Positions 6,868 through 60,196 of a DNA stretch of 64,000 nucleotides are shown here, one piece after another; position 1 is the stretch's first letter, and every line of letters begins with the position of its first letter. Source of the stretch: Lacipirellulaceae bacterium (GTDB taxonomy: Bacteria; Planctomycetota; Planctomycetia; Pirellulales; Lacipirellulaceae). The stretch lies in assembly GCA_044868555.1 (NCBI GenBank), contig JBIOWO010000253.1:2009-66008 (forward strand), given 5' to 3'. The position numbers were made by a program, and so were the translations under genes. The notes beneath the pieces are model-generated. The model was not told where the DNA came from. It ran no database searches and saw nothing but the letters and a program-made list of their open reading frames with translations.

Positions 6868-6965
6868 ATATAGCCGGCCATCTTGGCCGTTCACGCAGAC
6901 AGCCCGGCCATCCTGGCCGGCGCCCCGGGGTCGGGCTTCGGCCGTGAGCTCAGCCGAACGGAGTC
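6868..6965. repeat. two inverted-orientation ccggccatc(c/t)tggccgg units plus gggtcgggcttcggccgtgagctcagccgaacgga repeat
   Basis: The units are at 6874-6889, 6903-6920 and 6927-6965. They begin immediately after the stop codon at 6864-6866. Confidence 0.8.
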
Positions 6966-7050: not shown

Positions 7051-8622
7051 ATGCCCCCACGCACCCGCTTCGCCCCCAGCCCGACCGGCTACCTGCACAT
7101 CGGCGGCGTGCGGACCGCGCTCTTTAACTGGCTGTTTGCGAAAGGGCAGGGCGGCCAGTTCATCCTCCGCATCGACGACACGGATGCCCAGCGCAACGTC
7201 GACGAGGCGCTTGCGCCGATCCTGCACGGATTGAAATGGATGGGACTCGATTGGGACGAAGGCCCGGACGTCGGCGGGCCACATGCGCCGTACTACCAAT
7301 CGCAGCGGCTCGACAAATACCAGGCCGCGGTCAAGCAACTGCTCGAAGTCGGCGCCGCGTACCGCGATTTCGCCACCACCGAAGAATTGCAGGCCGAGCG
7401 GGCCGCCGCAGAAGCAGAAAAGCGTGCGTTCGTCTACAGCCGTCGCTGGCGGGCCGAAACCGAGGCTGACGCCCGCCGCTTCGAAGCCGAAGGCCGCCAA
7501 GGCGTCGTCCGTCTTCTGATGCCGCGCGAAGGCCAGTTCCTCCTCAACGATATCATTCGCGGCGAAGTCCGCGTCGAGTGGGCGAGCGAGCAGGACCACG
7601 TCATCCAGCGAGCCGACGGCACCTGCCTCTATCATCTGGCCACCGTCGTCGACGACCACGACTTCGAGATCACGCACGTGATCCGCGCCGAGGAGCATCT
7701 TTCGAACACACCCCGCCAGGTATTCATGTTCGAGCGCCTCGGCTACACGCTGCCGCAATTCGCCCACTTGCCCTACGTCACCGAGCCCGGCAGCAAGACC
7801 AAGCTCAGCAAGCGCAAGCTCGACAAGTATCTCAAGAACAAAGAGTTCGCCGCGCTGATGGAGCACGGCCAATCGATCGCCCGCCGCATGGGCCTGGCGG
7901 TCGCGGCCGACACGTTCAATCCGGTGATCGTCGACTTCTACGAGCAAGTCGGCTACCTGCCCGACGCGCTCTTGAACTACCTGCTTCTGCTGGGCTGGTC
8001 GCTCGACGATAAGTCCGAGGAATTCACGCGCGATGACATGCTCCGCCAGTTCACGCTGAAGCGCGTCAACAAAGCGCCGGCCAGCTTCGACCCGGAGAAG
8101 CTGCTCGCGTTCGAGTCCCGCGCGATGCAAAAGCTGCCAATGAAGCAGCGCGTGGCCAAGGTCGTGCCATTCCTGGAGAAAGCGGGTTGGATCACTGATC
8201 CGCCGCCGTGCGACACAGCCCCTTACGTCACGCAGCTCCTCGACGCGGCCGGCGACCGCGTGAAGGTCGCCGGCGACATCCTCGACTACGACGACTTCTT
8301 CGTCGCCGACGATCGACTGCAATACGACGAGGCAACGCTGGACAAGCGACTTCGCAAGTCGGCCGGAGCAGTCGAGCTCCTCATTCGGTTCCGCGACGAG
8401 CTGAATACCACGGAACCATTCACCGCCGATGCACTGGAAAAAATGATCCATGCCTTTGTGGCCGCGAACGGGATCAAAATTGGCGACATTGTCCACACCG
8501 TTCGCGTCGCGGTGACCGGCAGGCCGGTCGGCTTCGGCCTGTTCGACACGCTCGCCATCCTCGGCCGCGACCGCTGCCTGGCCCGCATCAGCCGGGCACT
8601 CCATCTCGCTGCAAATCCGTAG
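7051..8622 (+). CDS. gltX: glutamate--tRNA ligase
   Basis: HIGH region [19 protein letters not shown] and KMSKS-type KLSKRK. The match is full length. Confidence 0.96.
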
Positions 8623-8645
8623 GGTGGGTCGAGTTCCGCGTGGCA
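8618..8645. repeat. half copy of the ggtgggtcgag...cgagacccacc repeat family; contains the gltX stop codon
   Basis: The 16-mer cgtagggtgggtcgag at 8618-8633 is identical to 24246-24261 at the end of trpE. Confidence 0.8.
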
Positions 8646-8781
8646 GGTTCTTCCGGCCCCAAAATCTGCACGTCACCCGCTGGCATACACCCCCCGACGT
8701 GGGGTAAATTGTCGAATCGGACAGCCAGAGGCATTGTGATATTGTTGGAATTTCCTCGCTCCTCGCTCCCTGCTCCTCGCC

Positions 8782-10170
8782 ATGTCCGTCTCGCTCAAAC
8801 ACGCTCGTCGCGAAAGAGCGCTGGAGGCGGTTCGTCGCCACCTGAAGCGGCTCGAGATTGAGACCCATCGCGTCAAGGCCGAGCTGGCCCGTCTCGAAGG
8901 CGAGTACGAAGACGATTTCGCCGACGATCTGGCGCAAACTCTCCGTCGACATCGTCGAGCAAAGGACGACCAGCGACTCGATGCTTCACCGGTCGAGCCG
9001 GCCCAACCGGTGAACGGCAACGGTTCTTCCGCGCCCGACCTGCCCACGATCGCGGCTCCGCCCACGGCGCCGGTCCGCAATCGCCGGCCGCTCGTTCGCA
9101 AGCCGATCGATAAGGCCAACCCGATTCGCGAAGCGGCGCCCGTGGTGCCCGCGCCGCGAATCGTCGCCGACGCCGATGGTCTCGACCTCGTCACAAGCCG
9201 CGACAAGTCGCACCGCACGAAAGCCTATCGCCGCACGGCCCGACCGCTATTGGTGAGTTTCGGCATCCACGCCATCGTACTCTTACTCTGCGTGTCGCTC
9301 ACGTTCGCCACGCTCGGCCGGCAAGAAATCTCCCTGTTCGCCAGTCCCGCCGCGGCCGACGAACTGCCGGAGCAGATCGGCGAAATCGAAATCACGGCCC
9401 ACAAATTTGCCGACGATGAATTGCAAAACGTCGTCTCCGAGTCCGACGAGTTCAACGTTTCGGACAGCCTGCTCCGCGAGTTCGACCCGGCCCGCATCGG
9501 CGCGGGCAGCGAGTCGCTCGCCGACATGGGCCAGCTCAATGTACTGCCGAGCGACCTGGGCTCCTTGATGGCCGGGGCCGGCGAGCCGGGCGGCGGGAAG
9601 AACGGCGGGCCGCTCGGCGAGGCCGTGTTCTTCGGCGCGCATTCGAAGGGCGACCGCTTCGTGTTCGTCGTCGACAATTCCAGCAGCATGAAGGACGGCC
9701 GGTTCAATATGGCCATCGCCGAGCTGGTGAAATCGGTCGGCGCCCTGTCGCCGCGGCAATCGTTCTACGTAATTTTCGTCAGCGATCAGCCGTACCCGAT
9801 GTTCTACCCCGTGCCGGAACGAACGCTGCTGCCCGCCACCGCCGTCAACAAAAAGCGGCTCGCCGATTGGCTGCCCAAGGCGATCCTCGCCTCGGGCAAG
9901 AATCGCGAGCTGATCAAGGCCATGGACCTGGCCGCCACGCTGCAGCCGCAGGCCGTGTTCCTGCTGTGGGACGGCGACATGAAGTACAGCGACAAGGTGC
10001 GGCTCGACGTGATGACGCATCTCACGCAGCCCAACCAGTGGAATTTCACTATCCACACACTCGGCCTGGGCGTCACCTCGCTCGACAGCGAATACAACCT
10101 CACCGCGATCGCCAAAGCACACGGCGGCACTTACCGCCGCGTCGACGTGCCAGCGTTTCCGAAGCGGTAA
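8782..10170 (+). CDS. membrane-anchored vWA-like domain protein with N-terminal coiled coil
   Basis: Charged coiled-coil N-terminus. One TM segment (LLVSFGIHAIVLLLCVSLTFA). vWA/MIDAS-like FVFVVDNSSSMKDG in the C-terminal half. Confidence 0.75.
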   Translation: MSVSLKHARRERALEAVRRHLKRLEIETHRVKAELARLEGEYEDDFADDLAQTLRRHRRAKDDQRLDASPVEPAQPVNGNGSSAPDLPTIAAPPTAPVRNRRPLVRKPIDKANPIREAAPVVPAPRIVADADGLDLVTSRDKSHRTKAYRRTARPLLVSFGIHAIVLLLCVSLTFATLGRQEISLFASPAAADELPEQIGEIEITAHKFADDELQNVVSESDEFNVSDSLLREFDPARIGAGSESLADMGQLNVLPSDLGSLMAGAGEPGGGKNGGPLGEAVFFGAHSKGDRFVFVVDNSSSMKDGRFNMAIAELVKSVGALSPRQSFYVIFVSDQPYPMFYPVPERTLLPATAVNKKRLADWLPKAILASGKNRELIKAMDLAATLQPQAVFLLWDGDMKYSDKVRLDVMTHLTQPNQWNFTIHTLGLGVTSLDSEYNLTAIAKAHGGTYRRVDVPAFPKR

Positions 10171-10291
10171 TTGTTCGGGCAGTGAGTGCCTGAGATCGAG
10201 CGGCAGAAGCGTAATCGATCCGCATTGACGCTATCCATCGCATGACTTACTCTCTGGCTCTCTGGCATCAATTAACGCCCGAGAGAATTTC

Positions 10292-10780
10292 ATGTTCCGT
10301 TCCGTTGCGTTGGTAATTCTGTTTTTTGCCAAGATGCCTTCGACGATGGCTGCGCCGTACATTGTGTACCAACCAGCGACGGGAGGATTTTGGATTTCGG
10401 GAACACAACAACTGGACGGCTATGGGGGATTATTTCTCTATTCCGAAAGTGGTCAGTTAGCGGAGCCGAATACACAACTTCTTGTCGGGTATCCACTGGA
10501 TAACGATCCACATTCCCCGACGTATCTCAGATGGCTCCACACGGAGATCAGTCTGTCACTGCCGATAAATTACATCGACCGACTTTTCTTGGGAACATTT
10601 GCCAAGCCGGATACCCCAGCCCTTGACTGGACGGCGAGATATGTTTGGATTTCGTTTGCCCGCAGGCAGTCCGTGGATCAACCCATTCCCGTTTACGTGG
10701 CGCCCGAACCGAACACGGCGTGGCTAGTCGTGATGGGAGTCGGCTTCGCACTTTGGATCAAGCGCCGCAACAGAAAATAG
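10292..10780 (+). CDS. small secreted PEP-CTERM protein
   Basis: Signal peptide present. C-terminal VAPEPNTAWLVVMGVGFALWIKRRNRK gives the PEP motif, a TM segment and a basic tail. It lies in visibly AT-richer DNA. Confidence 0.7.
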   Translation: MFRSVALVILFFAKMPSTMAAPYIVYQPATGGFWISGTQQLDGYGGLFLYSESGQLAEPNTQLLVGYPLDNDPHSPTYLRWLHTEISLSLPINYIDRLFLGTFAKPDTPALDWTARYVWISFARRQSVDQPIPVYVAPEPNTAWLVVMGVGFALWIKRRNRK

Positions 10781-10799
10781 CTTCAATCCCACTACTTAC

Positions 10800-10991
10800 C
10801 TTGCCAGTGCCTGGACCTTCACGATCCACACGCTCGGCCTTCGCGTCACCTCGCTCGACAGCGAATACAACCTCACCGCGATCGCCAAAGCGCACGGCGG
10901 CACTTACCGGCGGGTCGATGTGCCCACTGCGGCGCGTCGCCAGATGGTTATCAAGTTGATTGTCACATCGGGCCGCGGAGGCGTGAATTAG
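10800..10991 (+). pseudogene. orphan duplicate of the 3' end of the vWA gene
   Basis: 10818-10924 aligns to 10045-10151 with about 8 mismatches in 107 nt. It translates in frame as WTFTIHTLGLRVTSLDSEYNLTAIAKAHGGTYRRVDVP, then has a different tail. There is no upstream coding body. Confidence 0.75.
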
Positions 10992-11167
10992 CGCAAAATA
11001 TTTGGCACGCTGCTTATGGGAGCATCATAATAGATCACGCCGTGCGCGTGAATTTCGTCCGTGCGGCTTTCGTGATGATGAGCAGGTGACACAGCTGGCG
11101 TAGTAGCTGGCGGCGGAATGAAGATCATCACGGCAATGATGGCAAATCCGGTGGCAATTCCATCCAT
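10988..11167 (-). CDS. possible 59-aa membrane peptide
   Basis: ATG preceded by AGGAG at about 8 nt. Hydrophobic N-terminus MDGIATGFAIIAVMIFIPPP. It is below the ORF-track cutoff and has no homology basis. Confidence 0.3.
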   Translation of the reverse strand: MDGIATGFAIIAVMIFIPPPATTPAVSPAHHHESRTDEIHAHGVIYYDAPISSVPNILR

Positions 11168-11271
11168 GGAAAGTGCTCCTAAAAGTGAGGAACTAGGCGG
11201 GCGGACTTATAGCCGAAAAATAGGAGTGGCTTCAAGTCCCATCGACATCTGAAAAAACTGTACTCGACTCA

Positions 11272-12000
11272 ATGCTGGTGCCCGGCCTTTGGGGGCTCGA
11301 CCCGCGGCCACTCATGCAGCTAGCGTCCTCAAGTTTACCGGTTATTCCGCCGATGCTTGATGATGAGACCGTGTCGTTTGCGGAAGTTGTTTCAGCTGCG
11401 AAAACACGTGCGACCGGCGGCTCACTTACTCATCTACCCAGGGGCCGTGTCATGCCCGAAGGCATTGAAAAAATTGGCGGCAGTTTGCTCAATTTGATCC
11501 TCGGCGGCGTGATCCTGTGGGTCGGCCAGACCACGTTTCGCCATTCAGGCATCCTGGCCAGCGTGGACGAGAAGTTCATGGCCACCACGCAGCAGTTCAA
11601 CGACGTCGACCGCCGGCTGGAGAGCGTGAAGAAGTGGATCGAGAGCGCGGTCACCGACCTGAAAGACAGCACGCGCTCGCAGTTCACGCTGCGGGACGGC
11701 GACAAAGTCGTGGCCCAGGTCCGCCAGGCGGAGATGACGACCACGGAGCTCGAACGCCGGGTCGTGGAGCGATTCAGCAGCCTCGAATCGCGTCTTGCAG
11801 CCCTGGAAACGCAGCACCGCGGCACACAGGAGGTCGCGTCGCTGCAATGGGAAGTCGCCCAGCTTCGCAACGCCCTGACACGCACCGCACCGGCGGCGGT
11901 CGCGCAGGAAGGCGCGTATCCGCAACCGGCGTATCAGCCGGCCGCCGAGGTCGCCCGCGGCGTCCCGGTCTTCCTGCCGCCGACCGGCAACCGCCGCTAA
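11272..12000 (+). CDS. membrane-anchored coiled-coil protein (probable start 11452)
   Basis: A TM segment (LLNLILGGVILWVGQ) is followed by a long heptad-like region and a Pro/Ala-rich tail. Confidence 0.55.
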   Translation: MLVPGLWGLDPRPLMQLASSSLPVIPPMLDDETVSFAEVVSAAKTRATGGSLTHLPRGRVMPEGIEKIGGSLLNLILGGVILWVGQTTFRHSGILASVDEKFMATTQQFNDVDRRLESVKKWIESAVTDLKDSTRSQFTLRDGDKVVAQVRQAEMTTTELERRVVERFSSLESRLAALETQHRGTQEVASLQWEVAQLRNALTRTAPAAVAQEGAYPQPAYQPAAEVARGVPVFLPPTGNRR

Positions 12001-18592: not shown

Positions 18593-18646
18593 GTCCGCAT
18601 GTCGGCGAAATTGCGATTCTGATAAAATGGAGTGGGAGGAATCGCA

Positions 18647-19300
18647 ATGGCCGCCCCGTTCGAACCCAATCTTTCTATTTTACCTGACGAGCAGCGCCGC
18701 TTGTGGCCGGAATTGCGGGATGTGCCGCAGACGTTCGTGCTGTGCGGTGGCACCGCGATCGCTTTGCAACTGGGCCACCGCACGTCGCGCGATTTCGACT
18801 TCGTTGCCTTTGGCACGTTTGATCCCGACGAGCTATTTTCCCGATTGCCACTACTCGCTGGCAGCGAAGCCATTCAGAAATCAGCCAACACTCTCTCGTG
18901 CATCGTGAAGCGCGACGCCCCGGTTCAGCTATCGTTCTTCGGCACTCCCGGCCTCCGATTGCTCAATCCCCCGCTGATCGCCTCCGACAATCATGTGCGG
19001 ATCGCGTCGCTGCTCGACCTTTCCGCCATGAAGGCTGCGGTCGTGCAGAAGCGCGCGGAAGCAAGAGACTATATCGATCTGGATGCAATCGTTCAGCAAG
19101 GGGGCGTGGATCTCCCAACCGCCTTGGCGGCAGCCCGCGCGCTTTACGGACCAGCGTACAATCCAGAGCTAACGCTGAAATCGTTAAGCTTTTTTGGGGA
19201 CGGTAATTTAGCTAATTTGCCTCCGAACGTTCAAAACCGGCTCGAACAAGCAGTGCGAAGTGTCAATCTCAATGAACTGCCAAAAATCAGGCGATCATGA
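18647..19300 (+). CDS. DUF1814 / AbiEii-family nucleotidyltransferase (type IV TA toxin-like)
   Basis: CGGTAIALQLGHRTSRDFDFV is the NTase G-x-D-x-D motif. KAAVVQKRAEARDYIDLD is the AbiEii motif III-like segment. The ATG at 18647 is preceded by GGGAGG. The ORF track starts at the GTG at 18632. Confidence 0.8.
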   Translation: MAAPFEPNLSILPDEQRRLWPELRDVPQTFVLCGGTAIALQLGHRTSRDFDFVAFGTFDPDELFSRLPLLAGSEAIQKSANTLSCIVKRDAPVQLSFFGTPGLRLLNPPLIASDNHVRIASLLDLSAMKAAVVQKRAEARDYIDLDAIVQQGGVDLPTALAAARALYGPAYNPELTLKSLSFFGDGNLANLPPNVQNRLEQAVRSVNLNELPKIRRS

Positions 19301-19617
19301 AGCAGCTTGTGTTAACTCCCGAACTTCAGCAAGTGGCTCGCCGGGTTATCTGGTTCGAGGAGCCGGAGCAGGCAATCGCCGATCCAGCACGATTCGTCGC
19401 CTATGCGATGACATACGGAACTCACACCGATGTCGCAGAAATCGAGCAGCAGCTGACCGAAGTCGGTCTATTGGAGGCCCTTGAAAACGCCCCGGCCGGC
19501 ATCTTCGACCCGCGCTCCTGGGCCTATTGGAACCTCAAATTGGGCCGCTATCCTACGCCTCCAATGCCGCAGAGGCCATTTGATAAAATGCCGTGGCCGC
19601 CTAAGTTTGACGCGTGA
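19297..19617 (+). CDS. hypothetical protein, translationally coupled to the NTase (possible cognate partner)
   Basis: ATGA start/stop overlap with the preceding gene. 106 aa with no recognisable motif. Confidence 0.6.
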   Translation: MKQLVLTPELQQVARRVIWFEEPEQAIADPARFVAYAMTYGTHTDVAEIEQQLTEVGLLEALENAPAGIFDPRSWAYWNLKLGRYPTPPMPQRPFDKMPWPPKFDA

Positions 19618-39002: not shown

Positions 39003-39362
39003 GTGGTGTGGGATGTCGAATATACCGATGAGTTCGAACAGTGGTGGACGAGCCTCACCGAAGATGAACAGGCCGACGTGAACGCCGGCGTCGAATTGCT
39101 CGAACGTCATGGGCCGCAGTTGGGCCGGCCCCACGTGGACACATTGAAAGGGTCGAAGCATTCCAACATGAAGGAACTACGAACGCAATCCAGCGGCAAG
39201 CCGCTTCGCACGTTTTTCGCCTTCGATCCGCGTCGCACCGCGATTCTGCTCATCGGTGGCGACAAGACCGGCGACAAGCGATTTTACGATCGTATGGTGC
39301 CGATCACCGACAACCTGTACGACGAGTACTTGAAGGAAATCGATCGGGAAGGGCTCATCTAA
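39003..39362 (+). CDS. RelE/ParE-superfamily toxin (HigB / Gp49-like)
   Basis: VEYTDEFEQWW..L...LGRPHVDTLKGSKHSNMKELR...RTFFAFDPRRTAILLIGGDKTG. GTG start. It is followed at a 1-nt overlap by an XRE antitoxin. Confidence 0.85.
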   Translation: MVWDVEYTDEFEQWWTSLTEDEQADVNAGVELLERHGPQLGRPHVDTLKGSKHSNMKELRTQSSGKPLRTFFAFDPRRTAILLIGGDKTGDKRFYDRMVPITDNLYDEYLKEIDREGLI

Positions 39363-39682
39363 TGGCCGGACATCGCAAGTTTCAACTGCTTCGAGACAAG
39401 CTGACCCCCGCCCAGCGCGAGCGCTCCAAGGCTCGTCTGAGCGAACTGCAGAAGGAAATGCTGCTGTCCGAGCTACGCAGGGCCGCTGGCCTGACGCAGC
39501 AGCGACTTGCCGACGAACTTGGCGTCTCGCAGCCCTGTTTGTCCAAAATGGAAAAGCAATCCGACATGCAAATCGGCACGCTCGAACGGATTGTTACGTC
39601 GCTTGGCGGCCAGCTTGAGGTGATTGCACACATGCCCGGAGGAGATGTCGTTTTAACGCAATTCACTCAGCGTTCTTCCTAG
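39362..39682 (+). CDS. XRE-family HTH antitoxin (HigA-like)
   Basis: HTH segment LRRAAGLTQQRLADELGVSQPCLSKMEKQ. Confidence 0.85.
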   Translation: MAGHRKFQLLRDKLTPAQRERSKARLSELQKEMLLSELRRAAGLTQQRLADELGVSQPCLSKMEKQSDMQIGTLERIVTSLGGQLEVIAHMPGGDVVLTQFTQRSS

Positions 39683-39698
39683 GCATGCGACGCGATAC

Positions 39699-40055
39699 TC
39701 AGCCGCCACCAACCGGCTTCCCGTTCGCCAGCAGCGTCATCTCAATAGTCCCGCGCGTCGCTTTCGAGTACGGGCAGATCGTGTGCGCCTTGGCGACCAG
39801 CGCCTCGGCCTGCTACTGGCGGACGCCCGCCAGTTCGGCGTCGAGCGTCGCATCGATGAAGAAGCCGCTGTCGTCCTTGTGCAGCCGAACTGTGGCCGTG
39901 ACCGCTCGCCTCACTCGCTTCGCCGTGTCCTCCGTGCCTCCGTGGTAAATCAGTTCGGCGATGGCCAAAAATAGTTGCTGAACTTGCCCGTCGTTTGTGA
40001 TACGGTCGATGTCGCACAATATTGCGCGCCGAAAGAACGCCGGCAACATTGTCAA
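39699..40055 (-). pseudogene. degraded Ohr/OsmC-family peroxiredoxin gene
   Basis: The C-terminal [27 protein letters not shown] matches Ohr. An in-frame TAG at 39813-39815 separates it from the upstream part. The first catalytic Cys position reads Y (AIAELIYHGG), and the N-terminus is truncated and diverged. Confidence 0.55.
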
Positions 40056-40474
40056 TCAGCGTTCGCGCTCACCCTGCACACCGACCGCCATGTTCCATCA
40101 CCCACCAGCCATCAATCAACGTAACCAACGCCGTTCTCCCAGTTTGAACGAGCTGGCCACGGGGCGACCCCCATGCGCACGTGACCCCTTCGAAAGTTTA
40201 ACGACTTACGTCGACGCGCTCGTGACCCCATCGCAAAAACAAGCCATTTTTGCGGGCCTAAGTTCGACCCCCCTGTCGTCTTCGAAAATCGAAGCCACTT
40301 CCGAAAGCTCGCCCGCCCCGATTGAGAATTTGATGCAAGATTTCAGCGCTGCCGTCATGTCTCTGCGCCCTCCGGGACCTCCTGTTCAAAACGCTCGATC
40401 GAAAATCGCAACCGGCCAAAAATAGTTGCTGAACTCGCACCACGAATCTGCTAACGTCGATTTCGATGATGCGA

Positions 40475-40515
40475 GACTCTCCGTTCGGCTGAGCTCACGG
40501 CCGAAGCCCGACCCC
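40475..40515. repeat. repeat gactctccgttcggctgagctcacggccgaagcccgacccc (reverse orientation of 6927-6965)
   Basis: Near-exact reverse complement of the copy at 6927-6965. Confidence 0.85.
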
Positions 40516-40678
40516 GGCACCAACAACACGCGTGTTCTCAACTCGAATCCAACTGCGATCATCTGCGAAATCCGCGGCAAAAAACCCGTCTGGAACCCGG
40601 AGTGTCGCGCGCCGCCCAAATCTGCTAAATTTCCAGCCTAGCCCATTCTCAGGCGCACGCGAAAAATGGATTGATCCT

Positions 40679-42481
40679 ATGTCCGCCAACGGCACACTAT
40701 CCCCTGAAAAACCCTCCCTCAACTTCATCGAGCAAATCATCGAAGCCGATCGCGCCGCCGGTAAGAACGGCGGCCGAGTCCACACTCGCTTTCCCCCCGA
40801 GCCGAACGGCTACCTCCACATCGGCCACGCCAAGAGCATCTGCCTGAACTTCGGCCTCGCCGAGGAGTACAAGGGCAAGTTCAACCTGCGCTTCGACGAC
40901 ACGAACCCCACCAAGGAGGAGCAGGAGTACGTCGACTCGATCATCGATGATGTCGACTGGATCACCTCCGCGTTTGCGGGCGACCAGCGAGCCGGGTCGT
41001 CCCCGACCCCGGCCCGTTCCGAACCGCTCTATGCGTCCGACTATTTCCAGCAACTCTACGACTGGGCCATCCAGCTCATCAAAGAGGGCAAGGCCTACGT
41101 CTGCGACCTCACGGCCGACGAAGTTCGCGCCCATCGCGGCACGCTCAGCGAACCGGGCAAGAACAGCCCCTACCGCAATCGGTCCGTCGACGAAAATCTC
41201 GACCTGTTCGAGCGGATGGAGAAGGGCGAGTTCCCCGACGGCGCCCGCACGCTCCGTGCCAAGATCGACATGGCCTCGCCCAACATCAACATGCGCGACC
41301 CGGTGATGTACCGCATCAAGCACGCCTCGCATCACCGCTCGGGCGACCGCTGGTGCATCTACCCATCCTACGACTACACCCATGGCCAAAGCGACTCGAT
41401 CGAGGGCATCACCCATTCCATCTGCACGCTCGAATTCGAAAACCACCGCCCGCTCTACGACTGGTTCTGCAAAGAACTGCGGATCCACCACCCACAACAA
41501 ATCGAGTTCGCCAGGCTCAACCTCACGTACACGGTGATGAGCAAGCGCAAGCTGCTTCAGCTCGTGCAGGAGAAGCACGTCGCCGGCTGGGACGACCCGC
41601 GGATGCTCACCATTCGCGGCCTTCGCCGCCGCGGCTACACGCCCGAGGCAATCCGCGCGTTCTGCGAGCGGATCGGCGTGGCGAAATTCAACAGCACGAT
41701 CGACATGGCCTGGCTTGAGGACGCGATTCGCGAGGACCTGAATGTCCGGGCCCCGCGCGTGATGGCCGTGCTCAAGCCGCTCAAAGTCGTCATCACGAAC
41801 TATCCCGAAGGCAAAACCGAACAACTCGCAGCGGCCAATCACCCGCAGTACGCCGCGCTGGGCACCCGCAGCGTGCCGTTTTCGCGCGAGCTGTACATCG
41901 AGGCCGACGACTTCATGGAAGACGCCCCCAAAAAATTCTTCCGCCTCGCCCCCGGCCGCGAAGTGCGTCTCCGCTACGCTTACTTCATCACCTGCACCGA
42001 AGTGGTCAAAGACAAGTCCGGCCACATCACCGAGCTCCGCTGCACCTACGACCCAGCCACGCGCGGCGGCAACGCGCCCAACGGCCGCAAAGTGAAAGGC
42101 ACGATCCACTGGGTCGATGCCGCCTCTGCCGTCAGTCCCGAAATCCGCCTCTACGACCACTTGTTCAAGACAGAATTTCCAGATGGTGGGGGACGAAAGG
42201 CGGACACCGAAGATCCAGACGATCCCTCCGGTCCTCAACCCTCAACCCTCAACTCTCAACCCTCCACCTTCCTCGACAACATCAACCCAAACTCACTCAC
42301 GATCGTCCGCGACGCCAAGCTCGAACCATCGCTCGCCGCGGCCGCCCCAGGCCAACATTTCCAATTCGAGCGCCTCGGCTACTTCTTCACCGACCCAATC
42401 GACTCGAAACCTGGCAAACCGGTTTTCAGCCGCACCGCGACGCTCCGTGACACGTGGGCCAAGGAATCGGCCAAAGAATAG
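40679..42481 (+). CDS. glnS: glutamine--tRNA ligase
   Basis: [14 protein letters not shown] (HIGH), VMSKRK (KMSKS) and C-terminal [10 protein letters not shown]. The start is taken at MSANG. Confidence 0.95.
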
Positions 42482-42498
42482 GCGAAGTTTCATAGATC

Positions 42499-43311
42499 GT
42501 GACCGTCAAACATTATGACAATCCGTTAGTGCAGGCGTACTTTGAAAAGGTGCTGCCGTCGCTAGTCTTTGTCGAGTGCACAAACGTTGCAACAGGTCAG
42601 GTTTTGTGTGGAACGGCGACGGTGATTGCACATGGCGGCGATTCGGCAGGCGGTTATATCCCGTATTTGGCAACCGCGGGCCATTTGTTACCCGAAGCAA
42701 ATGTCGCGACTCATTTTCGACTGACTCGGTACACGTTTGAGGATCTAGCGAACCCAATGTCACGAATGGCCGAATTTGAAATGCCTCATGCAGAAAGCAC
42801 TCGTAAGACTCCAGCATACATAAAGATTGGTGATAAGGACGGCCTTTCCCGTTTGGACATTGGTTTGATCCGGGCACCGATCACCTGCATCGATGGCCAG
42901 CCTTGGTTCGTAACGAATAAGCCTTCAACAGAGTCAATGTCTATCCAGCCGGCGTCCGCTTGGGCAGCTGAAGGTTCGCAAGTCGCTTGGGCAGGATTTC
43001 CAGCGCTCGCTATGGACATCGCGCGGCGTCCACAACCTTGCTATTACCAAGGGGTCATTTCGTCGTTACTAATTAGGAACGAATTCCAGATGTACCTCAT
43101 TGACGGACACAACACGTTTGGCATTAGCGGCGGTCCTGTCTGGTGGATCAACGCTGAATCACGAGTACCAACCGTAATTGGTATCGTATCATCCTATCGC
43201 TTTAGCAAACAAATGAACGCCATGCCTGGATTGGTTGCTGCAACGCCGATCCAGCTTTTGTTGTCGCTGGTTTTTCAAGACTACGTTGCTAAGACCTCAA
43301 CGATAAATTAG
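42499..43311 (+). CDS. trypsin-like serine protease fold protein
   Basis: TAGHLL (His region) and GISGGPVW (GDSGGP-like). GTG start. The DNA is clearly AT-richer. Confidence 0.55.
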   Translation: MTVKHYDNPLVQAYFEKVLPSLVFVECTNVATGQVLCGTATVIAHGGDSAGGYIPYLATAGHLLPEANVATHFRLTRYTFEDLANPMSRMAEFEMPHAESTRKTPAYIKIGDKDGLSRLDIGLIRAPITCIDGQPWFVTNKPSTESMSIQPASAWAAEGSQVAWAGFPALAMDIARRPQPCYYQGVISSLLIRNEFQMYLIDGHNTFGISGGPVWWINAESRVPTVIGIVSSYRFSKQMNAMPGLVAATPIQLLLSLVFQDYVAKTSTIN

Positions 43312-43382
43312 GGATTGGCCGATCCCGCGATTAGCGCGCAATCGCGCCCCTAACGTGGAGACACAACGGAGGCGCCCAATCG

Positions 43383-43571
43383 CTACTTCGGATCCGGCAC
43401 GGACAGCCCGCGACAAATCTTGATCGCGAGCCGATCGCTAACTTCCGTGTGCCGTGGCACCGCTTCAACCTCGCCCGTGTGCGGGTTGGTCCACAGCGAG
43501 TGCGAGCGGCCCTCGCGCTTCAGCCGACAGCCATGACGCCGCAGATGGCGCAAGAAAGAGGTCCGCTTCAT
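43383..43571 (-). CDS. hicA: HicA mRNA interferase toxin
   Basis: LRRHGCRLKREGRSHSLWTNP...VPRHTEVSDRLAIKICRGLSV. Confidence 0.88.
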   Translation of the reverse strand: MKRTSFLRHLRRHGCRLKREGRSHSLWTNPHTGEVEAVPRHTEVSDRLAIKICRGLSVPDPK

Positions 43572-43831
43572 TCGACAACGACGATCTCGCGTTCGGCATC
43601 GGCGGGCACGCCGCGCAAACCGTCCTCGCGCCGATCTTCAAGAATCAACGCAATCGCATCGCGCAGACTGGTCACAGCTTCTTGCTTGGTCTGGCCCTGT
43701 CCGTTTGCTCCCGGCACTTCGGGGCAATACGCGATGAACCACGGTCCATCCTGTTCGATCACGGCAGTGAATTCGTTTCGCATTGAATGCCTCGAATTTT
43801 GCCAGCGAGCAACCATCGCCGACAATGACAA
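43568..43831 (-). CDS. hicB: HicB-family antitoxin (probable start 43783)
   Basis: FTAVIEQDGPWFIAYCPEVPGANGQGQTKQEAVTSLRDAI. It overlaps hicA by 4 nt. Confidence 0.85.
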   Translation of the reverse strand: MSLSAMVARWQNSRHSMRNEFTAVIEQDGPWFIAYCPEVPGANGQGQTKQEAVTSLRDAIALILEDRREDGLRGVPADAEREIVVVE

Positions 43832-43927
43832 TTTTAAGCGATGAACCTGACTCCGACTATCCCGTCTTCAACTGCTGCGCTCCGCGCCACCTGGGCCAAA
43901 GAGTCGGCCCGAGAATAGATCGAGAGA

Positions 43928-45088
43928 TTAGCGGTGCTGAGGAATTCGACGGCCGAGCCCACGGCAACCGCAGACAATAAGCATCCCAACCATGAACGCG
44001 GCGAAAGACGGTTCAGGCACCACCAAGGTCGCCACCACGCCGGCATGGTCGGCCGGCCACAGACCAGACGGTGTGCGATCGGCAAGTGCCTCGCCAACGG
44101 TGTCTGCGTCCACGGCGAGTGGTCCGTTCCTAGTCAGGATCAGGTCGACTCTTTGGGATAGCTCGGAAGGGTTATTCAGGAGGTCTGCATCTTGGCAGCA
44201 AGTGTATCCGGGATCGCCGGGGTGAACTACGCTCCAGGCGTCGCTGAATCCGGCGCCAATCAGGCTGGCGTAGGTTGAGGACCCACTGCCATCGGCCGGA
44301 GAATTGAAGTCGCCGACGAGAACGGTGGGCGAATTTGAATTGGTTGGACCGGAGAGCAATTCGGCGGCTTGAAGCACTTGAGCCGCCGCGACCGGATCGA
44401 GATGCGTGTTGAAAAATCGGAAGTCGAGTCCATCGGTGTCGACGTCCACTGCCGTCCACCCGCGCAAGAAGTTCACTCCCAACGCCGAGCCAAACACCGC
44501 GTAGTTGCCGGATTGCGGATTGGAGACTTGGAACTGAGAAGGTGGGAGATCGGTGCGAGCGAGGATCACGTCGCGGTCCGTCAGTCGAATATCTTGCAGA
44601 ATCGGACTAGTGTCGGGATTAAACCCGATAAGTCGCGGAAACTCGGCATCGACGTTTTGAACTGTTGCCACCGCCGCGTAGCTCAAGCCCCGCGCACTGA
44701 GTGCGTTGAGCATCGTCGACAAGAAGTCGATTTCCACGGTGGTCGCATGAGGCGCACCTGGACCATCAAAGGGCGCGGACCGAAACAGCGACACCTCCTG
44801 CAAACCAATCAGGGCCGGTTGCTTCTGGTCAACCTCGAGAGCGATGGCGTCCGCTCGGGCGGCGATATCGCTGGCCAATACTTGCGCATATATCGTCGTG
44901 GTGAGCGCCACGACGTTTCCCGGATTCGCGCTGACATCGGCAACGTACTGGCCAACGTCAAAGCCCACATACATGTTTTGTGTCATGACGCTGACCGCCG
45001 CGTCAATCCGCGGAGCGAGCATCAAGCCGACCAACGCGGCAAGATACAATCGAGAAGCAACGGAATCGAAATGTGATGCGGACATCAT
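43928..45088 (-). CDS. endonuclease/exonuclease/phosphatase (EEP) family protein with PEP-CTERM anchor
   Basis: LQEV, VGDFNS and PADHAGV motifs. The C-terminus reads VVPEPSFAAFMVGMLIVCGCRGLGRR. Confidence 0.8.
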   Translation of the reverse strand: MMSASHFDSVASRLYLAALVGLMLAPRIDAAVSVMTQNMYVGFDVGQYVADVSANPGNVVALTTTIYAQVLASDIAARADAIALEVDQKQPALIGLQEVSLFRSAPFDGPGAPHATTVEIDFLSTMLNALSARGLSYAAVATVQNVDAEFPRLIGFNPDTSPILQDIRLTDRDVILARTDLPPSQFQVSNPQSGNYAVFGSALGVNFLRGWTAVDVDTDGLDFRFFNTHLDPVAAAQVLQAAELLSGPTNSNSPTVLVGDFNSPADGSGSSTYASLIGAGFSDAWSVVHPGDPGYTCCQDADLLNNPSELSQRVDLILTRNGPLAVDADTVGEALADRTPSGLWPADHAGVVATLVVPEPSFAAFMVGMLIVCGCRGLGRRIPQHR

Positions 45089-45191
45089 CGTGCCCTTTCA
45101 TCTCGCATGGAGCGATCCTTCTCAGGGGTGTTAAAGTGCGCAGCATAGCACATCCGCCAGTTGATAAGAAGCAGTTTCATAACGCGCTTTG

Positions 45192-45248
45192 GTAGCTGGA
45201 TTCGCAAGAATTCAGCCAGGAGGGCTGAAGTTTTGCAACTTCAGCTAC
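45192..45248. repeat. double-hairpin repeat gtagctggattcgcaagaattcagcc..gctgaagttttgcaacttcagctac
   Basis: Same family as 59999-60053. Confidence 0.85.
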
Positions 45249-45304
45249 CGTATTGAAACTGCTTCAAGTCAAATAAACTCAAAACAATGGAAAACTGCGG
45301 CAAA

Positions 45305-45455
45305 GGGCACGTGTCGCTGGCCGGGCTCGGCCAGCACTTCCAATTCGAGCGCCTCGGCTATTTCTTCACTGACCCCGTCGACTCGAAGCCCGCCACCCCG
45401 TCTTCAACCGCACCGCCACCCTCCGTGACACCTGGGCCAAAGAAGCGGCCAAGGA
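45305..45455 (+). pseudogene. orphan, frameshifted duplicate of the glnS 3' end
   Basis: 45329-45455 aligns to 42350-42478 at roughly 80-85 percent identity (by eye). It reads [21 protein letters not shown], then a 1-nt deletion, then [18 protein letters not shown] in the +1 frame. Confidence 0.75.
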
Positions 45456-56433: not shown

Positions 56434-56808
56434 ATGGTAGAATTGAGGAGGCCGCCGGCATGTTCGAATCAAAATGGCATGGTCCGAAAAATGGTTGCCT
56501 CACTTCGCTTACCGATTGACCGCGAGAAGCTCCGCGATTTCTGTCGCAGGTGGTCCATTTCCGAGCTTGCGGTCTTCGGGTCCGTCCTGCGCGATGACTT
56601 CCGTCCCGATAGTGACGTAGATTTTCTGGCAAGTTTTTCCGCCGATGCGCCATGGAACCTTCTTGATCAGGTGAAGATGCAGAACGAGCTGGCCGAGATC
56701 GTCGGGCGACGCGTCGATCTTCTCACGCGTGCGGCTGTGGAAAAGAGCAGGAATCCGATTCGGCGACGGGCTATCCTTGAATCAGCCGAGGTGCTTCATG
56801 TCGATTGA
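56434..56808 (+). CDS. mntA: MntA-type nucleotidyltransferase antitoxin (type VII TA)
   Basis: LAVFGSVLRDDFRPDSDVDFL is the GS-x10-D-x-D minimal NTase motif. It overlaps the downstream DUF86 gene. The start is uncertain (56434, 56479 or 56491). Confidence 0.85.
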   Translation: MVELRRPPACSNQNGMVRKMVASLRLPIDREKLRDFCRRWSISELAVFGSVLRDDFRPDSDVDFLASFSADAPWNLLDQVKMQNELAEIVGRRVDLLTRAAVEKSRNPIRRRAILESAEVLHVD

Positions 56809-57160
56809 TCGCGACCCTGCGCTTCTCATCGACATCGCGAATGCATGTGATCTGATCGGCAAATTCATCCGCGGCACTAGCAAACCCGAATTCGATGCCG
56901 ATCAAAAGTTGCAGTCTGCCCTACTTCATCAGTTGCTCATCCTTGGTGAAGCCGCTCGTCAATTATCCACCGGTTTCCGCGCTGCTCATCCAGAAGTCGA
57001 TTGGTCCGGCTACATCGGACAACGCAACGTGTTGATTCACCGCTATCTTGAAGTGGATCTGGATAAGGTCTGGCGAGTCGTCGAGGACGAAATTCCTGAG
57101 CTCCGACGATGGATCCAACCCTGGTTGCCTGACGAGTTCTTCGAAAATTCACCGCGGTAA
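56798..57160 (+). CDS. hepT: HepT (DUF86, HEPN) ribonuclease toxin
   Basis: The HEPN R-x4-H motif is in GQRNVLIHRY. It overlaps mntA by 11 nt. Confidence 0.85.
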   Translation: MSIDRDPALLIDIANACDLIGKFIRGTSKPEFDADQKLQSALLHQLLILGEAARQLSTGFRAAHPEVDWSGYIGQRNVLIHRYLEVDLDKVWRVVEDEIPELRRWIQPWLPDEFFENSPR

Positions 57161-57180: not shown

Positions 57181-57747
57181 ATGCCCATTCGCACTTTCAT
57201 CGCCGTAGCCGTCTCATCCGAAATCCGCCACGGCGCCACGCGCCTCATCAGCCGCTTGCGGCCTAGCGCCGGCGACGTCAAGTGGACCGCGCCCGACAAT
57301 CTCCACTGGACGCTCCAGTTCCTGGGCGACGTCGACGATTTGGAAATCCCTGCGCTGTGCGATGCCGTCGCCACCGCCGTGAACGATATCGAGTTGTTCG
57401 ACTTGCAAGCCTGCGGCGCCGGCGCATTCCCGACCGCCGATCGCCCGCGCACACTCTGGCTCGGAGCAGGGCAGGGCGCGGATGCAATGATCGCCCTGCA
57501 GCGGGCGATTGAGCGACCGCTCAAAAAGCTCGGCTACCGCGGCGAGGACCGCCGCTTCGTGCCCCACCTCACGCTCGGCCGCGCCGGCCGGCGTGGCCAA
57601 CCGCAATCCCTGGCCGCCGAGCTCGCCGCCCTGGCCGACTTCGACGCCGGCTCCATGCTCGTCGACGAAGTCACCGTCTTCGCCAGCACGCTCACCCGCG
57701 AAGGCTCCGAGTACCGCGTCCTGGCCCATGCCCCGCTGGCTCAGTGA
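57181..57747 (+). CDS. thpR: RNA 2',3'-cyclic phosphodiesterase (2H phosphoesterase, LigT/ThpR)
   Basis: Two H-x-T-x motifs (HWTLQFLG; PHLTLGR) at the correct spacing. Confidence 0.9.
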   Translation: MPIRTFIAVAVSSEIRHGATRLISRLRPSAGDVKWTAPDNLHWTLQFLGDVDDLEIPALCDAVATAVNDIELFDLQACGAGAFPTADRPRTLWLGAGQGADAMIALQRAIERPLKKLGYRGEDRRFVPHLTLGRAGRRGQPQSLAAELAALADFDAGSMLVDEVTVFASTLTREGSEYRVLAHAPLAQ

Positions 57748-57804
57748 ACCACCCCCGCCGCCGTTCGCTGCAGCGCATGGTTAGGCCTTACGGCACTCCC
57801 GGCT

Positions 57805-58299
57805 TCATCGCTCCGCCAAGTAGGGCAGCAAATCGGTGTGCTTTCCGATCATTTTCCACTGGCCATTTTCTTTGCGGAAAGAGTTGGTGGCGCGGATGGA
57901 AACCTTCTGGCGTTCTCCTTTCGCGTTGGTATTCTCTCCCTTTTCGTAACAGCTCACGACCGCGAGATCCGTGCCTGCGATGATTCGCATATCGGCGGGC
58001 TCGACCTTGCCCCCAAGTTTCATGGCAGCCTGCGCCTCCCAATTTTCAAGCACCTGCTTCCATCCGACCTGGAACCCGCCGCCAGGCCCCATGTAGGTAA
58101 CGTCGTCTGCGTGGGACCAGACCGTCTTCATTGGCCCCAACTCACCGGTAAACATTTCGTTCAACGCGGCATAAAACTGCGCCGCGGCGTTCCTGACGGC
58201 TGTCTCGTCCTTCTCAGCCGCGAGCGCTAACTTGGCGCAAACAAGAACCGCCACCGACAAGATGGACATCGAAATCCAGACCGTCCATTTACTCTTCAT
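57805..58299 (-). CDS. secreted NTF2-like (SnoaL/DUF4440) protein
   Basis: Signal peptide MKSKWTVWISMSILSVAVLVCA. AAQFYAALNEMF..W NTF2-like core. GGAGG lies 6 nt upstream of the ATG at 58299. Confidence 0.7.
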   Translation of the reverse strand: MKSKWTVWISMSILSVAVLVCAKLALAAEKDETAVRNAAAQFYAALNEMFTGELGPMKTVWSHADDVTYMGPGGGFQVGWKQVLENWEAQAAMKLGGKVEPADMRIIAGTDLAVVSCYEKGENTNAKGERQKVSIRATNSFRKENGQWKMIGKHTDLLPYLAER

Positions 58300-58410
58300 C
58301 TTATGCCTCCGTAGTTGAAGTGAACCTGCTTCATTCATAGTGGCATTGACAATCTGCCTTACGTTGTCGCCTAATGACCGAGCTCAGCAGCGGCTTGTTC
58401 GGCGCTGCTC

Positions 58411-59004
58411 TCACGCACACTCGAAGTCCGCAACGGCCAGCACCTGGGAACACTCCGGACACTTGCCCACCAGGTTGAACCAGGTAAACAGCTCCTGCTC
58501 CCGACCGGCGAACTCGGGGAAATCGCCGTCAAACAGGTCGTCCGGGTACTCGAACCGCACGAATGTTTCGAGTGGCTGCCGCCCGCACGTGGGGCACTCG
58601 TACACGACACGCTCCCCCTGTGCGCGAACGGTGGCCGAGCCGTGTCCCAACTCCGCATCGTACCCATGCACGTCGGTGTCGAGCAACTCGGTTGTCTTCC
58701 GGCACGCCGCGCATTCCAGTCCGAGCGGGCTGAGAATAACGACCGCGTTGTTGAACTCAACGTTGACCCACCTGTGGCAGTGGACGTAGTGCCGAATACC
58801 GCCACACTGGCACGAGAGGGCGAAGACGGGGTTGATGTGTTCGGGGGCGTCGATCGTGACGCCCGGCGGAACCTCGAAGGTGAGCTGCGACATCGAGGCG
58901 TGCCCGTCAAACTCCACACCGCGCAGTTCGGTGGGCCGAGCGGTGAACCCGGCGATGCACCTCGGCGGGTGGCTCCGGAAGTAGCTGGCCTGATCCATCC
59001 GCAT
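58411..59004 (-). CDS. hypothetical Cys-rich protein (putative zinc-ribbon pairs)
   Basis: CQCG..HC, CAAC, CPTC and CPEC pairs. GGAGG lies upstream of the ATG. No family recognised. Confidence 0.55.
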   Translation of the reverse strand: MRMDQASYFRSHPPRCIAGFTARPTELRGVEFDGHASMSQLTFEVPPGVTIDAPEHINPVFALSCQCGGIRHYVHCHRWVNVEFNNAVVILSPLGLECAACRKTTELLDTDVHGYDAELGHGSATVRAQGERVVYECPTCGRQPLETFVRFEYPDDLFDGDFPEFAGREQELFTWFNLVGKCPECSQVLAVADFECA

Positions 59005-59111
59005 CTCACCTCCGCTCGCCGCACGACCAGCATCACGGGGCCGCCGCCATGCGACGTTCCAGTCAAAACCGACCGGGTCGGCGGCTCCGGTGCATGCGAT
59101 GGTTCGGCGGC

Positions 59112-59678
59112 TTACGCTTCGGGCCGTTCCGCTCTCGGCTCTGCCCGGCGGATCAGTTCGTTGGACGGCAACCCCGGATCCAGGACCTTGCGCGCCGTCT
59201 CAGCGCCCGCCACCGGCAGGCGCGCCGGGGCAAGTAACCCAAGTTGGACAAGGACCGATGCCTGATCCCAGTAGATTCGCTCGCACTGCACCTGATCGGC
59301 ATTCAACTGTACGACGACGACCAGCGGAACCTCAACCGGCCGACCGGTCGGAGGAATGCCGGGCAGCATCCAGTCCATCTCGATGTCGTGGGTGAACGCG
59401 AAGATCATCTCATCGATGACCCGTTCTTGCCCCACCGTGCGACAAACCGGCGTGAGTCGGGTATCGGCAGGCATTTTCGGGATAAAGTGTCGGCCGTAAA
59501 ACGTCAGCATCTCAGTCCGGCCACGTCCGCCGGTCATCACGGGAACGTGATTGACGTAATTGTCGTCCGACATCGTCGCGACTGTGGCATCCGCGTCACG
59601 GGCCGTAAATTCGCAGCGGATATGTTCTTCCCAGATGTCAATCAATCGTTGTTCGTCGGGCGTGAACTTCGACTCCAT
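59112..59678 (-). CDS. SnoaL-like / NTF2-fold protein (ester cyclase-like)
   Basis: IDIWEEHIRCEF..VNHVPVMTGGRGR..FYG is typical of SnoaL-like cyclases. AGGAGG lies 8 nt upstream of the ATG. Confidence 0.7.
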   Translation of the reverse strand: MESKFTPDEQRLIDIWEEHIRCEFTARDADATVATMSDDNYVNHVPVMTGGRGRTEMLTFYGRHFIPKMPADTRLTPVCRTVGQERVIDEMIFAFTHDIEMDWMLPGIPPTGRPVEVPLVVVVQLNADQVQCERIYWDQASVLVQLGLLAPARLPVAGAETARKVLDPGLPSNELIRRAEPRAERPEA

Positions 59679-59882
59679 GTGAGGGCCTCCTAACGCGCGC
59701 TCTCTGTGTGCCGCCTAACAACAATCTTGAGAGGCGGGAGTGATGATGTATACAGGCGTATATCACCACGTCCCTCTGCTCCCACCGACAGCGGAAGTCC
59801 TGTCACGGCAACATCTTATCGTCGGCCAACCGCCACCGCAAGCAACTACAAAGACGATTCGGGGCCGGATAGCGTCCGGATT

Positions 59883-59983
59883 CCGGCTCCATGCTCGTCG
59901 ACGAAGTCGCCGTCTTCGCCAGCACACTCACCCGCGAAGGCTCCGAGTATCGCGTCCTGTTCCACGCCCCGCTGGCTCAGTGA
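59883..59983 (+). pseudogene. orphan duplicate of the thpR 3' end
   Basis: Aligns to 57647-57747 with about 6 mismatches in 101 nt, including the TGA. It reads GSMLVDEVAVFASTLTREGSEYRVLFHAPLAQ* and has no upstream coding body. Confidence 0.8.
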
Positions 59984-59998
59984 ATCGCCGCTTGTTCC

Positions 59999-60053
59999 GT
60001 AGCTGGATTCGCAAGAATTCAGCCCAATGTCTGAAGTCTTGTGACTTCAGCTA
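59999..60053. repeat. double-hairpin repeat gtagctggattcgcaagaattcagcc..ctgaagtcttgtgacttcagctac
   Basis: It starts 16 nt after the orphan thpR fragment. Confidence 0.85.
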
Positions 60054-60196
60054 CTCTCCGTCATCCGCTTTATTGCAGCTTCGTGACGCAAAAGTGAGGC
60101 CGTTTGGCGGCGGACCTGAAGCGGGGCCGCCGTAAAATGGACTTGGCTCCCGACCGGTGCGTTCCAGGAGCGAACACGCGGAACAGTTCCACAGGC

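Follow-up and report, generated by a model that had tools for sequence, protein, structure and literature searches.

A putative integrase-less integron fragment, probably captured by illegitimate recombination, between duplicated thpR ends in a Lacipirellulaceae bacterium

Introduction

Integrase-borne islands in bacterial genomes are flanked by a duplicated 3' end of a gene or tRNA, the two copies being known as attL and attR. Integrase-less derivatives of such islands also occur, for example the cis-mobilisable elements (CIMEs) at fda in Streptococcus thermophilus and the tycheposon remnants in Prochlorococcus. Integrons, as well as clusters of their attC sites without an integrase, are known systems, and integrons have already been reported in Planctomycetes. 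Foreign DNA can further be captured in bacteria by homology-facilitated recombination or by end joining. To our knowledge, natural bacterial islets with flanking duplications of 60-130 bp that end at stop codons are not a described class. Here we describe an island of three small genes behind thpR, a gene of the LigT family, in a stretch of 64,000 nucleotides (contig JBIOWO010000253.1 of assembly GCA_044868555.1; the whole stretch is called the window below) from a Lacipirellulaceae bacterium. The cargo (57749-59882, about 2.1 kb) holds the open reading frames (ORFs) ORF1, ORF2 and ORF3, all on the minus strand, and lies between two copies of the 3' end of thpR.

A cluster of attC sites lacking integron integrase is termed a CALIN (Cury et al. 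2016, PMC4889954), and the origins listed for CALINs are loss of the integrase gene intI, rearrangement by insertion sequences (IS) and secondary-site insertion. The thpR island resembles a CALIN, or a degraded sedentary chromosomal integron, in its same-strand promoterless cassettes with Shine-Dalgarno (SD) sequences of their own, in its attC-type sites and in having no intI nearby. Moreover, an orthologous array elsewhere adjoins an intI pseudogene, and the cassette content differs between strains. The island differs from a CALIN in that it appears to keep the attI side and the first intI codons and has only one attC of fully canonical form. It also differs in its flanks, which repeat 102 bp of a host gene end, and in that microhomology could be resolved at both junctions; the listed origins do not fit such a structure. 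With islands bounded by attL and attR it shares the order of gene 3' end, cargo and diverged direct repeat, and a similar arrangement at glnS in the same window looks like tandem accretion. However, there is no integrase, conserved core or element terminus here, the ends are truncations of integron features, and in another island of the window (island 1, at a VWA gene) the repeat restores no C-terminus. Microhomology-mediated template switching, described as break-induced replication mediated by microhomology (MMBIR) or fork stalling and template switching (FoSTeS) (Hastings et al. 2009, PMC2621351), has in common with this locus a junction microhomology of 2-4 nt, the joining of a distant segment with a short local duplication, and endpoints that do not recur. 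These models and those of DNA capture rest for the most part on work with copy-number changes or on laboratory transformation, unlike the natural islet considered here.

Materials and Methods

The cargo was compared by blastn and by two alignments (A1 and A2) with a 446-kb contig from ENA, named L054, whose genomic context is unrelated to that of the window. Independent metagenome runs (X1-X4) were searched as Logan contigs. X1 is a soil run and the closest to the window organism, X4 is a sediment run, and the contigs of X2, X3 and X4 represent strains with about 97% identity that were used for the ORF2 comparison. The thpR loci of 13 relatives, about 290 kb in total, were compared, L001 being the closest relative. 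Recombinases were sought with a Pfam scan of 40 window ORFs.

Detection of attC sites relied on a home-made structural scan and on folding. With strict settings there were three matches where 0.7 would be expected, a single one of them between genes; the output of relaxed settings was pure noise and was dropped. Window-wide counts of TTMGGCGRC and GTTMGGC were rejected as an integron signal because neither motif is enriched overall, and only their clustering inside the island spacers is informative.

The host is a soil Pirellulales organism, and its closest species-representative genome is a metagenome-assembled genome (MAG) with a ThpR identity of 71%. In scans of genomes and metagenomes the best relatives reached only 71% and 70% ThpR identity, and a lookup of the exact ThpR protein sequence found no record.

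Results

The result that decided the identity of the cargo was a homologue of ORF3, at 96% identity, on L054. This contig carries the whole cargo except ORF2: its positions 9769-10662 match window 59886-59016 at 89.6%, and 10650-11273 match window 58379-57753 at 93%. In the alignments, the homology ends at both borders of the island. The flanks of the shared segment on L054 are unrelated to the window and hold an ABC transporter and PQQ genes, and no direct repeats were found around the segment. Its divergent neighbour is an ORF at 9494-9973 on the minus strand, of which residues 71-159 match the integron-integrase profiles NF011946 (2e-19) and TIGR02249 (3e-18) over profile positions 5-89 of 337. 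By this match the ORF is a truncated intI, made up of the N-terminal 85 residues of an integron integrase. It stops after about 89 residues beside the ABC-transporter gene (8500-9500), and that integron is degenerate, too. A contig of X4 also leads from the attI-side region into intI-like sequence. In the island itself intI is missing. All that is left of it is about 165 nt that match the leader and first codons of the L054 intI, next to a putative attI whose region is conserved with L054 (Table 1).

An attC site follows its ORF and consists of the boxes R'' (RYYYAAC), L'', L' and R' (GTTRRRY) in an imperfect hairpin that has an extrahelical base. Behind the genes of the cargo we found candidate attC sites of unequal quality. 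The attC of ORF3 begins 4 nt past the stop codon and fills the intergenic gap. Its layout is R'' GCCGAAC, a 5-nt spacer, L'' CATGCAC with an extrahelical G, a variable stem-loop, L' GTGATG, a spacer and R' GTGCGGC, and the orthologous site on L054 has R' GTTCGGC, a 7/7 pairing of R'' with R' and a fold with z -4.8. The attC of ORF1 lacks the 3' half of the variable stem, L' and R'. In L054 and X4 the same site goes on as ...AACCGCGACG... and, over about 65 more nt, includes L' (CTGAGC) and finally R' (GTTCTGC); the full-length site of L054 measures about 110 nt. In X4 the 5' half of this attC (57756-57791) reaches a depth of about 200x and is bordered on either side by several different sequences; three contigs go on as ...AACCGCGACGG before 57754. 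It thus behaves as a multi-copy attC family. The attC of ORF2 measures about 35 nt, which is atypically short. GCC[G/T]AAC stands within 25 nt after each of the three cargo genes, and 4 of the 25 GTTMGGC sites of the window fall in the roughly 440 nt of island spacers. With one full, one truncated and one short attC site, and no intI within the 64-kb window, the cargo would be an integrase-less integron fragment that consists of the attI side and three cassettes and is closest to a CALIN. It is not a complete integron, as there is no adjacent intI and no recombinase among the window ORFs (0 of 40).

The cargo is broken off arbitrarily at both ends, each time within an integron feature, and neither end is an att site. 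At junction 2 (59882/59883) the integron-derived ...GCGTCCGGATT-CCGG meets thpR codon 156 (GAC GCC GGC TCC), and at the matching point L054 runs on into intI. Junction 1 (57748/57749) lies 1 nt past the thpR stop codon and has a microhomology of 0-4 nt (AA or AACC), positions 57749-57752 being ambiguous. Such arbitrary truncations point to illegitimate recombination; they are not predicted by a site-specific element or by the chemistry of integron integrase. A site-specific element would have an identical core and constant termini, and here only 4 nt are shared and the DNA of L054 continues past both ends. For a transposon with a target-site duplication, inverted repeats at the ends were looked for and none was found, and the islands of the window have duplications of differing length, from about 60 up to 132 nt. 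We also considered junction 1 as a clean cassette end of the G/TT type and rejected this, because L054 and X4 show that the attC continues and the site is therefore truncated. The minus-strand G/TT at this point is most likely coincidental.

The repeat search paired 57647-57753 with 59883-59989 (107 nt, 93% identity). Compared base by base, the first 102 nt contain six mismatches (57673, 57690, 57714, 57724, 57725 and 57729), and the identity continues through TGA and one A (57748 and 59984) and ends there. An earlier note on this window had described a repeat of about 101 nt with about six mismatches and TGA at both ends, and this was borne out. In copy 1 the residues common to all relatives (EVTVF, VLAHAP) are retained. 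In copy 2, T is replaced by A and A by F at positions that are invariant in the 13 relatives, and three further differences are synonymous. By this comparison copy 2 appears to be a decaying remnant, and nothing can be read from its frame being open over 33 codons. The frame is indeed open, as the earlier note had said, but calling it intact is not meaningful when two invariant residues are changed.

The order of an upstream gene, pfkB and thpR is kept in the 13 relatives. In L001 a gene with a CBM35 domain directly follows thpR, and the same gene sits to the right of the island in the window. It follows that the island was inserted between thpR and the gene that natively adjoins it. No 3' duplicate of thpR was found in the 13 relatives, and short 3'-end repeats of a comparable kind numbered zero in the approximately 290 kb of their loci compared to three in the window. 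Nor did a repeat as long as that at thpR occur there by chance. The scans of genomes and metagenomes with ThpR revealed no empty thpR site of the same species and no duplicates of thpR, and cargo genes downstream of thpR were found in none of about 40 loci of relatives. In another lineage the spacer between thpR and the CBM gene contains two PEP-CTERM genes without a duplication.

The structure of the island is not an assembly artefact. Contigs of the independent run X1 span both junctions: the one across junction 2 reads ...GACGATTCGGGGCCGGATAGCGTCCGGATT/CCGGCTCC, and another of 1737 nt leads from copy 1 into the cargo across junction 1. X3 has junction 1 and the join of copy 2 to the downstream DNA. 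The earlier note had advised checking read support across the junctions, in case of an assembly artefact. Two strain variants of the thpR end joined in tandem could be suspected in a metagenome-derived contig, and de Bruijn contigs break within the repeats. However, the junction-spanning contigs of X1 and X3 carry copy-specific variants, and we consider the chance of a misassembly negligible.

The unit of ORF2 measures exactly 649 nt (59023-58375) and lies between two R' cores. Its first letters, TGCGGCGA..., directly follow the G of the R' in front of it, and its last, ...GGTCA, stand before TTAGGCGAC. These 649 nt are skipped in contigs of X2, X3 and X4 and missing in L054, where the empty site reads GGTCG/TTCGGCGACAACG. 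ORF2 and its attC thus form a unit bounded by G/TT that is present or absent between genomes, as is typical of a cassette, and the ORF3-ORF1 pair stands beside intI in L054. The array of the strain without ORF2 already has junction 1, which implies that the cassette was gained or lost after the capture of the array. This would have happened exactly at the R' core of attC, and would call for recombination with a homologous array or for an integron integrase that acts in trans. A non-canonical crossover within GGCGA was considered for this indel and rejected; the placement by the aligner is uninformative, and the empty site of L054 fits the canonical G/TT.

Two NTF2-like genes and one Cys-rich gene had been named as the cargo in the earlier note, and the Pfam matches of ORF1 and ORF3 (SnoaL_3/DUF4440 and SnoaL_2) and the cysteines of ORF2 agree with this. 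The same holds for the strong SD sequences noted for the three minus-strand genes: GGAGG stands at SD distance in 3/3 cargo genes compared to about 3-4 of the 47 other genes in the window, and the SD of all three cargo genes is unusual for the host genome. A scan for promoters and terminators gave nothing above background. The family of ORF3 is very abundant in soil. ORF2 has no Pfam match; it belongs to a widespread uncharacterised family of 195 aa with eight invariant cysteines. Its AlphaFold model is confident (pLDDT 90, pTM 0.85) and found no fold match in the PDB (best E 0.15), and the modelled fold may be new. One homologue of ORF2 sits in a same-strand array of about 20 small genes, and the homologue in L021 is preceded by GGTCGTTCGGCGA, a motif that also precedes ORF2 in the window.

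Table 1. Features of the thpR locus in the window, with the evidence for each.
Feature	Coordinates	Strand	Evidence
thpR, 2',5'-RNA ligase / LigT family, intact	57181-57747	+	Pfam LigT_PEase 1e-26
Repeat copy 1: final 33 thpR codons, stop codon and 1 nt	57647-57748	+	Repeat search, base-by-base comparison
Putative truncated attC of ORF1: R'' GCCTAAC (57786-57780), L'' GCTGCAG, 5' half of variable stem	57749-57786	-	Alignment A2 with L054
ORF1, cassette gene, secreted NTF2-like (SnoaL_3/DUF4440), signal peptide, GGAGG SD	57805-58299	-	Pfam; 93% nt identity to L054 10650-11273
ORF2 cassette, 649 nt; gene at 58411-58998	58375-59023	-	Skipped in X2, X3 and X4 contigs, missing in L054
Candidate attC of ORF3, 91 nt	59018-59108	-	Structural scan, fold -29.1 kcal/mol, z -2.5
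ORF3, cassette gene, NTF2-like (SnoaL_2), AGGAGG SD	59112-59678	-	Pfam
Putative attI-side region: core GTTAGGC (59719-59713), then 165 nt homologous to intI-proximal leader and first codons of L054	59713-59886	-	Alignment A1
Junction 2: CCGG common to integron segment and thpR codon 156	59883-59886		Alignment A1; same junction in X1
Repeat copy 2: apparently decaying thpR 3' remnant, continuous with native downstream DNA	59883-59984	+	Repeat search, comparison with relatives
Double-hairpin dispersed repeat (REP-like), native intergenic DNA outside the island	59999-60054	+	Repeat search, Rfam

Discussion

We favour, with some confidence, the explanation that a CALIN-like fragment of a chromosomal integron was captured behind thpR by illegitimate, microhomology-mediated recombination that duplicated 102 bp of the gene end. 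A piece of an integron of 1.5-2.1 kb would have been inserted, and several routes could lead to the present structure. Template switching of the MMBIR type may have passed out of thpR just past the stop codon and back in 102 nt behind; end joining may have put the piece into a break with widely staggered ends; or the insertion may at first have been longer and have been trimmed later by a CCGG-mediated deletion. Any of these three routes would duplicate 102 bp of the target. The event would have survived because the upstream copy leaves thpR intact, and the downstream copy decays. The divergence of the repeats fits their age, being 6% at thpR, where the island is common to the strains with about 97% identity and absent in L001, and 20% at glnS.

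Several observations weigh against this capture. In two or three of the islands the upstream junction lies at the stop codon or no more than 1 nt from it (exactly 1 nt past it in junction 1, at the stop for glnS), which speaks for something non-random. A random illegitimate event does not predict such a position, and selection for an intact gene explains the placement only in part. Of the three attC sites, one alone is canonical, and the ORF1 attC segment is single-copy in X1. The cassette promoter of an integron usually lies at the attI side, where no sigma-70-like Pc promoter was detected, and no source integron or intI of this organism was found. In addition, one genome cannot separate a single-step from a multi-step history.

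The main rival is import by homology, which we judge to be unlikely. A donor in which the integron fragment abutted the thpR stop codon would have supplied a piece made of the thpR 3' part and the cargo, circularised or joined through CCGG, and this would have recombined within about 100 nt of thpR homology in a Campbell-type or homology-facilitated event. The donor 3' end would now be on the gene, and that of the recipient would be left as the remnant. This would explain why the similarity ends at the stop codon, since homology between genomes ends with the gene, and it would suit the repeats being 6-20% diverged instead of identical, as well as the fact that the EEP-family gene, which looks like cargo at glnS, is the syntenic neighbour of glnS in relatives. 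However, two separate illegitimate events would be needed, one for junction 1 in the donor and one for junction 2 in the recipient, and 102 nt at 94% identity is a poor substrate for RecA. The changes of copy 2 at invariant residues suit decay and not a functional foreign allele, and none of the approximately 40 thpR loci of relatives carries the cargo genes behind thpR. In a model that follows the earlier note, the repeats would instead be the attL and attR of a site-specific element that brings a replacement 3' end, with its integrase encoded elsewhere, as in cis-mobilisable elements or cargo-only tycheposon remnants. Three to four islands of like layout in 64 kb, including the tandem accretion at glnS, speak for such an element, as do the junctions at stop codons and a cargo without integrase, on which an enzyme would have to act in trans. 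We give this explanation little credence, because the cargo ends are truncations in attC and at the start of intI and not termini, only 4 nt are common at junction 2, the islands have no common motif and the window has no recombinase. Besides, the repeat of island 1 stops 19 nt before the stop codon, the C-terminus of the protein being changed and not restored, and no relative has a thpR insertion with a duplication.

Integron integrases can use secondary sites of the form GWT or GTT. The minus strand at junction 1 reads ...GTGG/TTCACTGAGCC, and the attC of ORF1 could have been joined by IntI to a GTT-like site over the thpR stop codon, with the rest being rearranged later; G/TT stands exactly where the identity of the repeats ends, and secondary-site insertion is origin number 2 in the account of CALINs (PMC4889954). 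Still, this attC has no L' and R' boxes here, in contrast to the version of L054 and X4 that extends to GTTCTGC, and an insertion of this kind would carry no attI or intI sequence and would not duplicate 102 bp. We therefore regard it as very improbable. It is also conceivable, at a rather low probability, that the Pirellulales lineage has a recurrent and undescribed route of duplicative insertion at or next to stop codons, with target duplications of 60-130 bp. The segment pasted in would then begin at an integron's attI side and reach to an attC hairpin, with widely staggered nicks or target-primed copying as possible means, and the placement at stop codons would be mechanistic instead of an effect of survivorship.

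What is new in the captured integron fragment is the unusually well-resolved origin of a CALIN together with an unusual flanking duplication. It would provide a junction-level example of an integrase-less cassette cluster that arose by illegitimate recombination and not by the chemistry of the integron itself, and in the captured array one cassette is still subject to turnover among close strains. The island is also a caution for genome scans, in which a 3'-end direct repeat around cargo is usually read as attL and attR; here this is not so.

Other islands and repeats in the window

The earlier note had seen in the thpR island one more case of a pattern in which a gene 3' end, cargo and a duplicate 3' end follow each other. 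This layout does recur in the window, at the VWA gene (10039/10812), at glnS (42340/43871/45319) and at thpR, but the cases are heterogeneous in age and kind, and no junction motif common to the three islands was found. For the thpR island there is no support for the proposed recurrent, possibly trans-acting integration into coding 3' ends; the island consists of a random sub-fragment of an integron joined at a CCGG microhomology, with no motif and no recombinase. This reading is contradicted for the thpR island only. A shared recombinase or junction motif, for which the note had advised to look, was sought within the window and neither was found. The scan for tRNA genes found none in the window, so the island is not associated with a tRNA, and Rfam gave no match in the window. 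Several islets in one 64-kb stretch with duplications of about 100 bp that end at stop codons constitute a small unexplained residue.

At glnS, the EEP-family gene between the gene end and the outer remnant (45319-45450) is the syntenic glnS neighbour of the closest relative. An orthologous glnS remnant with the same left junction is present in that relative and in a second MAG (L055 and L056), so that the duplication predates the species split. The outer remnant differs by 20% from the gene end, and the inner cargo, a trypsin-like gene with HicAB (42482-43858), is absent from both genomes. In this region (42340-45450; 9730-12954 in L055; L056), the remnant beyond the EEP gene has an orthologue in another Pirellulales species at 76-78% identity. 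The duplication is therefore ancient, and the glnS 3' remnant has been preserved to about the same degree as the coding end. At island 1, the sequence of 10137-11326, including the cargo and repeat copy 2, is replaced by other sequence in the strain of X3, and the VWA protein of that strain ends in ...GGTYAY, a third C-terminal variant. The read-based comparison gave no clean empty-site joints for islands 1 and 2.

A double hairpin had been noted close to the thpR remnant. It is present there, but the window has six dispersed copies of it (15433, 38759, 38801, 45189, 53327 and 59996), and it is hence no landmark of the island; one copy was seen in the relative L008. It is built of GTAGCTG, a hairpin with a GCAAG loop, a spacer, a second hairpin and CAGCTAC, its stems covary, and it is probably a repetitive extragenic palindromic (REP)-like element or a small RNA or terminator family of the lineage.

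Two further repeats lie near glnS. A perfect inverted repeat of 39 nt has arms 33 kb apart (6925-6963 and 40479-40517), one of them just upstream of the glnS start. A promoter-like direct repeat of 52 nt (79%; 39963-40014 and 40414-40465) lies upstream of glnS, its two copies separated by about 400 nt, and may be a 5'-side analogue of the 3'-end duplications.

Modules of the toxin-antitoxin type are frequent between conserved genes of the window, with four per 64 kb. Three of them are AbiEii (18632-19617), a HigBA-like Gp49/HTH pair (39003-39682) and HicAB (43400-43831). An MNT/HepT pair lies between pfkB and thpR (56434-57160); it is missing from the strain of X3, where 56422 is joined to 57190, and three distant relatives (L003, L012 and L029) have it in the same place.

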